Positions 56,447-60,306 of a stretch of DNA of 64,000 nt are shown piece by piece. The stretch lies in NCBI RefSeq assembly GCF_044324785.1, contig NZ_CP172127.1; one strand, given 5' to 3'. Under the pieces are notes generated by a model. The model saw nothing but the letters and a program-made list of their open reading frames with translations. It did not search any database and was not told the origin of the DNA. Source of the DNA: Escherichia coli (GTDB lineage: Bacteria > Pseudomonadota > Gammaproteobacteria > Enterobacterales > Enterobacteriaceae). Each line of letters begins with the position of its first letter. Position 1 is the first letter of the stretch. The translations under genes and the position numbers were made by a program.

Positions 56447-57490
56447 TTATCCACGTAGTGTAGCCGCAAAATACAGCATACGATTGAGCGGCACTAGCGC
56501 CCTCTCTCGCAGCCTTTCATCAACATGAACCTCGTGATTGCTTCCTTCCTGTTCTAATGCCTCTGCGATGGCCTGAAGGCCATTCATGGCCATCCACGGA
56601 CAATGCGCGCAGCTGCGGCAGGTTGCACCCTCACCTGCGGTTGGTGCTTCCAGTAACTCTTTATCTGGCACCGCCTGCTGCATTTTGTAGAAAATACCCC
56701 GATCGGTTGCCACAATAATCCTCTGATGTGGCAATGTTTTCGCAGCAGCGATCAGTTGACTGGTGGAACCGACCGCATCCGCCATATCGACAATAGCGTG
56801 TGGTGATTCTGGATGCACCAGTATGGCAGCATCCGGGTATTCTTCTTGCAAGCGGGTTAACGCCTGAGTCTTAAATTCATCATGCACAATGCAGGCACCC
56901 TGCCAGCATAAAATGTCTGCGCCCGTCTGTTTTTGCACGTAACGCCCCAGATGTTTGTCGGGTGCCCAGATGATTTTTTCACCCAAACTATCCAGATGAT
57001 CAATAAGTTCGACGGCAATGCTTGAAGTTACCACCCAATCTGCCCGCGCTTTTACCGCAGCAGAAGTGTTGGCGTAGACGACGACAGTATGATCGGGATG
57101 GGCATCGCAAAATACGTTAAATTCTTCAACAGGGCAGCCGAGATCCAGTGAACATTCAGCCTGAAGTGTCGGCATCAGAATTGTTTTTTCCGGACTGAGA
57201 ATTTTGGCGGTTTCTCCCATAAATCTCACCCCAGCGACTAACAACGTAGAAGCGGGATGCTTTGCACCGAAGCGCGCCATTTCCAGAGAATCAGAAATAC
57301 AGCCACCGGTTTCTTCTGCCAGTTGTTGAATTTCGGGATCGGTATAGTAGTGGGCAACCATCACCGCATTACGTTCTTTTAGCAGACGTTTTATCTTCTC
57401 GCGGTAATACGCTTTTTCATCAATGCTTAACGGCGTCGGCTTCGGGGGGAAAGGATAAATCGCCGTGTCTGGATCAAACATCACGCTCAT
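56447..57490 (-). CDS. nadA: Quinolinate synthase NadA
   Basis: 347-aa ORF; synteny. Confidence 0.95.
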
Positions 57491-57706: not shown

Positions 57707-57737
57707 CAAAAAGCGCCTTTAGGGCGCTTTTTTACAT
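57707..57737 (-). terminator. Second copy of the tRNA-operon terminator hairpin, part of a duplicated unit
   Basis: aaaaagcgcctttagggcgcttttttacat, identical to the copy at 57863..57892. Confidence 0.5.
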
Positions 57738-57862
57738 TGGTGGGTCGTGCAGGATGACTCGCTTCGCTCGCCCTTCGGGCCGTCGCCGCGAGCGGCTCCG
57801 TTGTTTCGCTGCGCTCAACTCAAACCTGCTGCAGGTTCGAATCTTTGAGTATCGCAGATAGC
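57738..57862 (-). repeat. Degenerate tRNA-Lys-derived unit: 17-nt copy of the tRNA-Lys 3' end, then diverged sequence
   Basis: tggtgggtcgtgcagga is identical to the 3' end of the adjacent tRNA-Lys genes; the rest is no longer tRNA-like but keeps a T-arm-like ctgcaggttcgaatc. Confidence 0.6.
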
Positions 57863-57893
57863 AAAAAAGCGCCTTTAGGGCGCTTTTTTACAT
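57863..57893 (-). terminator. Rho-independent terminator of the lysT tRNA operon
   Basis: Hairpin gcgcctttagggcgc flanked by A/T runs, immediately 3' of the last tRNA. Confidence 0.65.
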
Positions 57894-57969
57894 TGGTGGG
57901 TCGTGCAGGATTCGAACCTGCGACCAATTGATTAAAAGTCAACTGCTCTACCAACTGAGCTAACGACCC
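57894..57969 (-). tRNA. lysQ: tRNA-Lys (UUU)
   Basis: 76-nt reverse complement matches E. coli tRNA-Lys with anticodon loop cuUUUaa and CCA end. Symbol assigned by position in the cluster. Confidence 0.93.
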
Positions 57970-58002
57970 CTTGCGGGATTATGCTGCTTTAATCATTCAG
58001 GA

Positions 58003-58078
58003 TGGTGGGTCGTGCAGGATTCGAACCTGCGACCAATTGATTAAAAGTCAACTGCTCTACCAACTGAGCTAACGACCC
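58003..58078 (-). tRNA. lysZ: tRNA-Lys (UUU)
   Basis: Identical 76-nt tRNA-Lys sequence. Confidence 0.93.
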
Positions 58079-58126
58079 ATACGGGTGTTACCTGAAAGAT
58101 TTCTACTCGGAACCAATCTTTAAAAT

Positions 58127-58224
58127 TGGTGGGTCGTGCAGGATGACTCGCTTCGCTCGCCCTACGGGCCGTTGCTGACGCAACGTTATCCTTCACGCTT
58201 AACATCTGAGTTTGATGTTAAAAT
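58127..58224 (-). repeat. Spacer unit with a 17-nt tRNA-Lys 3'-end stub and a conserved hairpin
   Basis: tggtgggtcgtgcagga followed by tgactcgcttcgctcgccctacgggccgttgctgacgcaacg... Confidence 0.6.
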
Positions 58225-58300
58225 TGGTGGGTCGTGCAGGATTCGAACCTGCGACCAATTGATTAAAAGTCAACTGCTCTACCAACTGAGCTAACGACCC
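58225..58300 (-). tRNA. lysY: tRNA-Lys (UUU)
   Basis: Identical 76-nt tRNA-Lys sequence. Confidence 0.93.
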
Positions 58301-58303
58301 GAG

Positions 58304-58379
58304 TGGTGGGTGATGACGGGATCGAACCGCCGACCCCCTCCTTGTAAGGGAGGTGCTCTCCCAGCTGAGCTAATCACCC
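58304..58379 (-). tRNA. valZ: tRNA-Val (UAC)
   Basis: Reverse complement is gggtgattagctcagctgggagagcacctcccttacaaggagggggtcggcggttcgatcccgtcatcacccacca. Confidence 0.93.
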
Positions 58380-58430
58380 GATACTGCGCTGGATACTACA
58401 AACTACTTCCACCGAACCCACCGTAATTAG

Positions 58431-58506
58431 TGGTGGGTCGTGCAGGATTCGAACCTGCGACCAATTGATTAAAAGTCAACTGCTCTACCAACTGAGCTAA
58501 CGACCC
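58431..58506 (-). tRNA. lysW: tRNA-Lys (UUU)
   Basis: Identical 76-nt tRNA-Lys sequence. Confidence 0.93.
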
Positions 58507-58508
58507 GG

Positions 58509-58584
58509 TGGTGGGTGATGACGGGATCGAACCGCCGACCCCCTCCTTGTAAGGGAGGTGCTCTCCCAGCTGAGCTAATCACCC
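58509..58584 (-). tRNA. valT: tRNA-Val (UAC)
   Basis: Identical 76-nt tRNA-Val sequence. Confidence 0.93.
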
Positions 58585-58619
58585 GATACTACGCTGGATA
58601 CTACAACTAACTATGTTAG

Positions 58620-58719
58620 TGGTGGGTCGTGCAGGATGACTCGACTTCGTCTCGCCCTTCGGGCCGTTGCTGATGCAACGTTATCCTTCACGTTTTACTA
58701 CCGCTTCCACCTTAGCGAT
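58620..58719 (-). repeat. Spacer unit with a 17-nt tRNA-Lys 3'-end stub and a conserved hairpin
   Basis: tggtgggtcgtgcagga followed by tgactcgacttcgtctcgcccttcgggccgttgctgatgcaacg...; closely similar to the unit at 58127..58224. Confidence 0.6.
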
Positions 58720-58795
58720 TGGTGGGTCGTGCAGGATTCGAACCTGCGACCAATTGATTAAAAGTCAACTGCTCTACCAACTGAGCTAACGACCC
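58720..58795 (-). tRNA. lysT: tRNA-Lys (UUU)
   Basis: Identical 76-nt tRNA-Lys sequence; first gene of the operon. Confidence 0.93.
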
Positions 58796-58913
58796 ACTTT
58801 TTCGTTGCTTTCGGTTTGTTTGATATCCCGTGGCAACGGCGGCATATATTACTGATTTCAGACTTGAGCGCAACAAAAATTTCGATGTAGATCACTCAAC
58901 TGCTTATGATTCG

Positions 58914-58959: not shown

Positions 58960-59751
58960 TTACATCGCGTTCAGACGTTTTTGCGCCTGTTTAGCGCCAT
59001 CAGTACCAGGATATTTACTGATAACCTGCTGGTATACGGCTTTCGCTTTTGCGGTGTCACCTTTGTCCTGCATGATGACGCCGACTTTAAACATCGCATC
59101 TGCAGCCTTTGGTGACTTCGGATAGTTTTTCACTACCGAAGCAAAATAGTACGCCGCATCATCTTTTTTACCCTTGTTGTAGTTTAACTGACCCAGCCAA
59201 TAATTGGCGTTTGGCAGGTAAGTTGAATCAGGGTAATTTTTGATGAAATTCTGAAATGCCACCATTGCGTCATCCTGGCGGGATTTATCCTGCACCAGCG
59301 CAATAGCTGCATTGTAATCCGTGTTTGCATCACCGCTTTTCACCGGCGCGCCAGCATTCGCAGTACCAGCATCAGCTGTCGGCGTCGTTGATGCCGCCGC
59401 ACCGCTTTGATCACCGCTGGTTGATTGCGCCGCTGCACCACCGCTGCTGAGGCTGTCGATCTGCAACAGGATCTGCTTTTGCCGCTCCACGACCTGATTC
59501 AGTTGATACTGATTTTCCTGAATCTGACCGCGCAGGGAATCAATATCGGATTGATTATCAGAGAGTTGTTGCTGGAGTTGGGTTAAAAGCTGGCTGTGAG
59601 CATTTGAAATACGCTCAAGTTGAGTGACGCGGTCTTCGACCGAGCCTGAGCCGACACTACTGATTGGTGCCTGAGCAAAAGCGGCCCAGGGGGCCGCTAT
59701 ACCAACCAGTAACGACAGACTCAATAGTTGATGTCTGAAGTTACTGCTCAT
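58960..59751 (-). CDS. cpoB: Cell division coordinator CpoB (YbgF), TPR-repeat periplasmic protein
   Basis: 263-aa ORF with signal peptide, coiled coil and TPR repeats, downstream of pal. Confidence 0.93.
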   Translation of the reverse strand: MSSNFRHQLLSLSLLVGIAAPWAAFAQAPISSVGSGSVEDRVTQLERISNAHSQLLTQLQQQLSDNQSDIDSLRGQIQENQYQLNQVVERQKQILLQIDSLSSGGAAAQSTSGDQSGAAASTTPTADAGTANAGAPVKSGDANTDYNAAIALVQDKSRQDDAMVAFQNFIKNYPDSTYLPNANYWLGQLNYNKGKKDDAAYYFASVVKNYPKSPKAADAMFKVGVIMQDKGDTAKAKAVYQQVISKYPGTDGAKQAQKRLNAM

Positions 59752-59760
59752 GCAATTCTC

Positions 59761-60306
<546 letters not shown>

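Follow-up and report, generated by a model that had tools for sequence, protein, structure and literature searches.

The long spacers of the lysT-type tRNA operon of Escherichia coli very probably contain members of the RtT RNA repeat family, which stand behind the tRNA-Lys genes of this cpoB-nadA operon and are lost and gained at 18-nt repeats; this is the reading that best explains the observations taken together. The family identity of the units, their anatomy, the conservation of their core and the polymorphism bounded by repeats are regarded as demonstrated. The RtT element is already known and catalogued, given its annotation in Klebsiella pneumoniae and the reports on Pasteurellaceae, and its function is unproven.

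Organization of the operon and its spacer units

The DNA analysed is a stretch of 64,000 nt from E. coli, referred to here as the window. On its minus strand, at 57894-58795, both ARAGORN and the Rfam tRNA model call seven tRNA genes, which follow each other as Lys, Val, Lys, Val, Lys, Lys, Lys (Table 1). These five tRNA-Lys and two tRNA-Val genes make up the lysT-type tRNA operon of E. coli, which lies between the ORFs of cpoB (58960-59751) and nadA (56447-57490). In K-12, the operon is transcribed as one RNA of approximately 1100 nt (PMC4176162). No promoter was found in the operon region by the promoter/terminator scan.

Over the operon segment, the window is 100% identical to strain N3, which is its best match, and the two differ by one base at position 57444 in the nadA ORF (minus strand), in a run of 6 G in the window versus 5 G in N3. 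The nadA gene is intact in the window and is annotated as 'frameshifted' in N3; the difference is due to faulty assembly of the homopolymer in N3 or to a genuine pseudogene of that strain. The CpoB/ybgF intercistronic RNA thermometer is found at the pal-cpoB junction (Rfam 142 bits, 59722-59860, minus strand). The whole operon is bracketed by an inverted match of 18 nt (83%), one side of which is in the trailing unit (57804-57821) and the other upstream of the first tRNA (58861-58878); it may be due to chance.

Table 1. Coordinates of the tRNA genes, RtT-like units, spacer remainders and terminators of the operon (+ strand coordinates of the window, listed in transcript order).
Feature	Position	Strand	Evidence or remark
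tRNA-Lys(UUU), first operon gene, lysT equivalent	58720..58795	-	ARAGORN; Rfam tRNA 79.2 bits
RtT-like unit S1, 100 nt, variable 5' part	58620..58719	-	Rfam RtT 60.2 bits; repeats; fold z = -2.8
S1 closing-helix 5' strand CGUGAAGGAU	58683-58692	-	Fold
S1 hairpin 1	58665-58680	-	Fold
S1 hairpin 2 (hairpin 3 next)	58654-58664	-	Fold
S1 stub, 18 nt of tRNA-Lys	58620-58637	-	Exact match
Y1, S1 spacer remainder, 35 nt	58585..58619	-	Entire spacer of strains without unit S1
tRNA-Val(UAC)	58509..58584	-	ARAGORN
tRNA-Lys(UUU)	58431..58506	-	ARAGORN
Empty site S3, 51-nt spacer	58380..58430	-	K-12-like strains: 149 nt = 98-nt unit + same 51 nt
tRNA-Val(UAC)	58304..58379	-	ARAGORN
tRNA-Lys(UUU)	58225..58300	-	ARAGORN
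RtT-like unit S5, 98 nt	58127..58224	-	Rfam RtT 55.0 bits in context; fold z = -3.5
S5 5' hairpin, 8 bp, UUAACAUC/GAUGUUAA	in 58127..58224	-	
S5 closing-helix 5' strand	58188-58197	-	
S5 hairpin 1	58170-58185	-	
S5 hairpin 2	58159-58169	-	
S5 stub	58127-58144	-	
Y5, S5 spacer remainder, 48 nt	58079..58126	-	Entire spacer of strains without unit S5
tRNA-Lys(UUU)	58003..58078	-	ARAGORN
Empty site S6, 33-nt spacer	57970..58002	-	K-12-like strains: 132 nt = 99-nt unit + these 33 nt
tRNA-Lys(UUU), last operon gene	57894..57969	-	ARAGORN
Intrinsic terminator hairpin and U-run after last tRNA, AAAAAAGCGCCCUAAAGGCGCUUUUUU	57863..57888	-	Read from sequence; repeat analysis
Trailing full-length RtT unit, ending in tRNA-Lys stub 57738-57755	57738..57862	-	Rfam 46.7 bits, model positions 1-130
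Second terminator copy, duplicated along with trailing unit, 156-nt repeat period	57708..57733	-	Repeat 98% identical over 54 nt

In transcript order, the spacers between the tRNA genes measure 135 (58585-58719), 2, 51, 3, 146 (58079-58224) and 33 nt. Each of the long spacers carries a module of approximately 100 nt that begins at the base directly after the CCA of a tRNA-Lys and whose last 18 nt, the stub, exactly repeat the 3' end of tRNA-Lys. This copy (TGGTGGGTCGTGCAGGAT on the + strand) occurs eight times in the window and zero times in shuffles, with five of the occurrences placed in the tRNA-Lys genes and the other three being the stubs listed in Table 1. A block of 39 nt, made of both hairpins (GCCCnnCGGGC and CGTTGCTGAnGCAACG) together with TTATCCTTCACG, is found at 58159-58197 and again at 58654-58692, with an expected number of zero, and its two copies differ by one base per loop.

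The tRNA-derived part of a unit is restricted to its last 18 nt; neither ARAGORN nor the Rfam tRNA model recognizes a cloverleaf with D, anticodon and T arms in the units, their calls being limited to the seven genes. On the minus (sense) strand, the hairpins of the units are not followed by the U-run that would make them intrinsic terminators, and the terminator scan flags them on the antisense strand only, with a weak T-run. Open reading frames run through the units on the minus strand at 58041-58205, 58103-58183 and 57732-57818; their coding potential was rejected and they were judged to be non-coding.

A further unit trails the last tRNA gene, between two terminator copies that are 98% identical, and is annotated by RefSeq/PGAP as 'RtT sRNA' in strain N3. 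A terminator after lysQ has been described (PMC4176162). Neither of the terminators at 57863-57888 and 57708-57733 was flagged by the promoter/terminator scan, probably because A/T runs lengthen the stem. The closing helix of the internal units is absent from the trailing unit of the window, as judged from the mismatch marks in the Rfam alignment and from the MFE fold. Some trailing units of Pseudenterobacter and Kosakonia are composites of 229-230 nt with a second, nested RtT core (GACAAAAUUGUCGGGAACAAUUUUGAAC...); composite units were found at L027 5144-5372, L075 5163-5621, L078 5287-5516 and L089 5165-5393.

The initial annotation of this DNA had described the two long spacers with their tRNA-Lys 3'-end copy and hairpins, and these are real, with the corrections that the copy has 18 nt, not 17, and that the first spacer starts at 58585, not 58586. 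It had also described the 33- and 51-nt gaps as devoid of the unit, and indeed no RtT-like unit is found in them. Its inventory of two internal units was right as far as it went and missed the third, at 57738-57862, with the duplicated terminator; the units were not recognized as RtT.

Family identity of the units

The gathering score of the Rfam model of RtT RNA (RF00391) is 45 bits, and the three units of the window exceed it on the minus strand, with 60.2 bits at 58620-58788, 55.0 bits at 58127-58293 and 46.7 bits at 57738-57863. For the internal units, the scores above the threshold are obtained in context, where the upstream tRNA supplies the missing 5' half of the model across a 44-nt insertion. 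When the internal S5 spacer is scanned alone, it scores 43.4 bits (E 9.5e-8), just below the threshold of 45, and the match is 5'-truncated and covers model positions 46-130, indicating that the internal units are a short form without approximately 45 nt of the 5' half. The trailing unit covers model positions 1-130 unaided by a tRNA. Full-length Lys-type units are found in Dryocola and Buttiauxella and bridge the long and short forms. In K-12, five RtT matches are located in the lysT-type operon and four at tyrT, the latter with 133-137 bits. The core that is common to the tyrT and operon units consists of CGUUGC-loop-GCAACG and GCCC-GNA-GGGC, followed by GAGU-AUCC and then by the tRNA stub. 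Sub-threshold Rfam matches to YrlA, Plastid-ycf2, AgrB and TYMV_upPK were dismissed, given that they overlap tRNA genes or AU-rich hairpins.

The RtT RNA (rttR) and the 178-bp repeats of the tyrT-tyrV operon are reportedly the subject of the work of Bosl and Kersten in 1991 and of Egan and Landy in 1978. Like the RtT of tyrT, the units described here are placed directly behind a tRNA gene, with which they would be co-transcribed, and come in tandem or multiple copies; they carry an 18-19-nt copy of the 3' end of their own tRNA, close with a helix formed by a 5' strand and the stub, and share the common core. The lysT-type units differ in that the stub comes from tRNA-Lys and not from tRNA-Tyr, in that the closing 5' strand is CGUG versus GGGG, and in that there is no Tpr reading frame, while the internal ones are a short form of approximately 100 nt that lies between tRNA genes and not just after the last one.

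In K. pneumoniae, four clustered features of 166-170 nt are annotated as 'RtT RNA' and have RNA-seq signal (PMC4147364). The source names no operon, and the size of these features suggests that they belong to the same operon as the units studied here. In Pasteurellaceae, RtT members adjoin Lys- and Asn-tRNA genes (PMC4986893). The repeat was first described in the tyrT operon. The only published claim of a cellular function, made in 1991 and relayed by the same paper, is that over-expressed tyrT RtT RNA alters the amino-acid starvation (stringent) response (PMC4986893).

Predicted RNA fold

The MFE folds of the units show a closing helix around three small hairpins, with z values of -2.8 to -4.9, and the same fold is obtained in the precursor context; S1 displays the helix and all three hairpins (z = -2.8). 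The closing helix is formed by CGUGAAGGAU with AUCCUGCACG, the latter being the first 10 nt of the stub, and spans 10 bp with 9/10 positions paired. In the predicted fold, the unit ends in a single-stranded ACCCACCA tail. By this modelling, the unit is an autonomous RNA-folding module of approximately 100 nt, with a variable 5' hairpin and a closing helix that is predicted to hold three hairpins inside.

Across 88 units, the closing helix is 89-90% paired and the whole structure 94% paired, versus 26-45% when the partners are slid. Over the sets of units compared, the pairing of the structure is 94-95%, and compensatory change is seen in six pairs. The 5' hairpin of the UUAACAUC type is 99.6% paired with three covarying pairs (35 units), and hairpin 3 alternates between GGC/GCC and GAC/GUC. 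The closing helix shows no variation among the Lys-type units, and its A.G mismatch is conserved. In the tyrT units, the helix is made of GGGGAAGGAU/AUCCUUCCCC, indicating that the 5' strand varies in step with the stub, a covariation of the closing helix that amounts to one Tyr-versus-Lys comparison and not to a statistical test.

Variation among E. coli strains

The locus was retrieved with a two-flank query from 59 genomes, spaced evenly by rank (not at random) among 5,426 complete E. coli genomes, and 17 representative loci were extracted and parsed for their architecture. At least 17 values of the inter-flank distance were found among the 59 sampled genomes. In the 17 parsed loci, every spacer behind a tRNA-Lys is dimorphic, with a long and a short form of 135 and 35 nt at site S1, 149-150 and 51 nt at S3, 146 and 48 nt at S5, and 132 and 33 nt at S6. 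At all four sites, the long spacer equals a body of 81-83 nt plus the stub plus exactly the short spacer, which means that the indel is bounded by the direct repeat of the tRNA 3' end and the stub.

A census of the 5,426 complete genomes with 40-nt position-specific queries, taken from the 5' parts of the units, found unit S5 in about 4,062 genomes (75%), S1 in 3,549 (65%), S3 in about 2,309 (about 43%; identity bands of at least 95%) and S6 in 1,799 (33%). The trailing unit, which has a period of 156 nt including the terminator, is present in 0, 1 or 2 copies among strains. The number of units per locus ranges from 0 to 6, with five in K-12, three in the window and zero in several strains, and the operon is without any unit in 13 of the 59 sampled genomes. 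Loci with 0 SNPs over 2.9 kb of flanks are found that nonetheless differ in architecture. No site was seen to have cleanly acquired a unit that it formerly lacked, and losses together with tandem copying of the trailing unit are enough to derive all E. coli patterns seen.

Identical tRNA genes in tandem can recombine unequally, with tyrT/tyrV as the classical case. Such recombination explains the loss of whole tRNA genes in some strains and probably the Lys-Val block duplication of Escherichia, whereas the gain and loss of units differ from it in proceeding via the 18-nt stub repeat and not via the 76-nt genes. The number of tRNA genes ranges from 5 to 7, with 7 being typical, and two O157:H7 strains have 5 versus 6. 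The S3 spacer of K-12-like strains (L001 2309-2457), compared with 58585-58619 and 58127-58224 of the window, is mosaic-like, with an S5-type unit and stub followed by an S1-like tail. From its sequence, this mosaic fits a Lys-Val block duplication in Escherichia that would have taken place via unequal crossover at a stub. The seven-gene layout is also seen in Kluyvera and Pseudocitrobacter.

These results support the proposal of the initial annotation that spacer units are present or absent between strains, given the census at four sites and the diversity of locus lengths. The route that it had proposed, recombination between identical tRNA genes, does not agree with the breakpoints, which fall in the 18-nt repeat of tRNA 3' end and stub and not in whole genes. 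Its expectation of a variable tRNA copy number is correct, with 6 or 5 genes in 5 of the 59 sampled genomes, as a separate event that is rarer than the unit indels. It had named invariant spacers and a conservation that ends with the stub as what would refute it; the spacers vary, and the conservation reaches far past the stub, so that its proposal is not refuted by this test.

Conservation across Enterobacteriaceae and identity of the stub

Loci anchored on CpoB were collected from 80 Enterobacteriaceae species, where draft assemblies frequently break within this operon, and 119 units were extracted. The same operon is found across the 80 species, usually as Lys-Val-Lys-Lys-Lys, with spacers that are dimorphic throughout, and several species, indeed many of the 80, have no unit in it. 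The type of the 5' region correlates with the position in the operon across genera, indicating that the units are old and that the absences are mostly losses. In pairwise comparison, the identity averages 0.87-0.88 in the 60-nt core and 0.95 in the stub, whereas it falls to 0.49 in the 5' region and to 0.40-0.55 in the spacer remainder.

Citrobacter has two tRNA-Lys variants, with U-A or G-C at acceptor pair 4:69, which makes it possible to ask which gene the stub resembles. The stub is that of the immediately upstream tRNA in 10/10 units, including 3/3 cases where the upstream and downstream genes differ. As read from these sequences, the match is most simply accounted for by conversion between the two repeats, which would copy the variant of the gene into the stub, with selection for the match as a possible alternative. 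In Citrobacter sp. wls619 (L069), both tRNA-Lys genes read GGGTCGT...ACGCCCC, which gives a U-C mismatch in the acceptor stem and may be due to a collapsed or chimeric assembly of the two variants. Some S5 and S6 stubs of E. coli (L007-L010, L012 and L016) have point changes (ACGACACACCA, ACGACCTACCA, ACGAGCCACCA and ATCTTGC) in units that are still present; within the species, the agreement of stub and tRNA is thus not strictly perfect.

Maintenance, processing and possible roles of the units

The architecture of the spacers suggests that the two 18-nt repeats mediate the loss of units, by slipped-strand or recombinational deletion, and that unequal exchange occasionally duplicates units; the same interaction of the repeats would keep the stub from diverging from the upstream tRNA. 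Co-transcription of the units with the tRNAs is likely. By analogy with what has been published for tyrT rtT, RNase P would cut the next tRNA and exonucleases would trim the unit to its tRNA-like CCA, so that a structured by-product RNA is probably released. Any single copy of the unit appears to be dispensable. A comparable case is the 3'ETS of glyW-cysT-leuZ, which, according to what is said of the work of Lalaouna et al. in 2015, acts as an sRNA sponge. It is alike in being a piece of precursor, spacer or trailer, that could persist after processing and act as RNA, while the RtT units differ in being repeated, in carrying a copy of the tRNA end and in being variably present.

According to the published work on this operon, the tRNAs are separated by RNase P, which proceeds from the 3' end, and cleavage of the long spacers by RNase E is seen only in the absence of active RNase P (PMC4176162). 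The spacers of 133-150 nt are treated there as plain spacers, with the repeats going unmentioned, and no released spacer RNA is reported from its Northern analysis (PMC4176162).

It is possible, although rather unlikely, that the units are functionless, self-perpetuating debris of recombination in the tRNA operon, whose uniformity is owed to gene conversion, both among the copies and with the tRNA 3' end, and not to selection on an RNA. Every copy is dispensable, with 0-6 per locus and 13/59 E. coli genomes and several species without any, and the architecture varies between strains with identical flanks. The stub follows the variant of the upstream tRNA, as conversion would yield, and the most variable part of the unit, the 5' region, is also its position-specific part; the conservation of the core could come from gene conversion and not from selection. 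What does not sit well with this explanation is the way in which the units change, given that the 5' hairpins have diverged and are nonetheless 99.6% paired, with compensatory changes, that hairpin 3 switches from GGC/GCC to GAC/GUC, and that the closing 5' strand is fitted to the Tyr stub in one family and to the Lys stub in the other. In addition, conversion alone leaves unexplained how a homogenized core stands beside a drifting 5' part and spacer remainder.

An action of the units in cis on tRNA maturation is unlikely. The stub and closing helix would here imitate a tRNA end and direct the action of RNase P, RNase E or a 3'-exonuclease on the polycistronic precursor, or set its order, a proposal close to the suggestion of the initial annotation that the hairpins may be processing sites. 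In line with this, the 10-bp helix of the unit is followed by an authentic tRNA 3' end, then A-CC, and the stub matches the upstream tRNA. The 3'-end-first work of RNase P on the operon and the ability of RNase E to cut long spacers point in the same direction (PMC4176162). However, operons without units are common and evidently yield the same tRNAs, the spacer cuts by RNase E occur only under inactivation of RNase P (PMC4176162), and the hairpins are without any mapped cleavage site.

A broader proposal, to which we give little credence, is that the RtT units are not debris but selected mimics of tRNA ends, with a cloverleaf topology, a stub that is kept matched to the upstream tRNA, as in Citrobacter, and a 5' strand that was re-fitted when the element moved from tRNA-Tyr to tRNA-Lys, and that they act on tRNA maturation or surveillance. 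If this were true, the targets could be the order of RNase P cleavage, the 3' exonucleases or CCA repair, or enzymes that attack tRNA ends and for which the unit would be a decoy, and the copy number of a strain (0-6 in the operon) would tune the activity.

It is very improbable that the stubs are scars of attachment sites, left by mobile elements that were once integrated in tRNA-Lys 3' ends and later deleted. Such integrations usually leave direct repeats of a tRNA 3' end behind, and the partial tRNA genes at the borders of integrated elements resemble the stubs in that the repeat adjoins an intact gene (PMC9897764). In contrast with those borders, the insert is a conserved structured module of approximately 82 nt (81-83 nt between the repeats) without an island, an integrase or an integrase ORF. 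The same structured core is present at four to five sites per operon, in tyrT and in 80 species, at matching positions across genera. Phage and plasmid collections hold no genuine matches; those obtained were misfiled chromosomal contigs or short fragments, and carriage by mobile elements was rejected. The reading is effectively refuted.

Finally, it is hardly credible that the units encode a small basic peptide like the Tpr of the tyrT repeat, given that the Arg-rich frames RRRPEGRAKR and RQQRPVGRAKR, although in the same frame as Tpr (RRQRPEGRS), start with TTG or GTG within hairpin stems, that the 54-aa ATG ORF through unit S5 continues into the next tRNA-Lys, that the start region of Tpr is deleted from the short units, that unit subtypes differ by core indels of 1-3 nt, and that substitutions preserve helices and not codons.

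Significance

The significance of identifying the spacer units as RtT repeats is modest, because a catalogued element is re-identified and no new kind of system is added. The lysT-type operon is among the structurally more unstable small loci of E. coli, which matters for assembly, typing and comparisons of tRNA dosage. Its spacers of 133-150 nt are conserved folded modules that end in a tRNA 3' end, and this could affect how processing intermediates are interpreted. RtT has been without an established function since 1991, and the combination of a conserved core, easy loss and a stub that tracks the tRNA makes of it a defined and testable puzzle.
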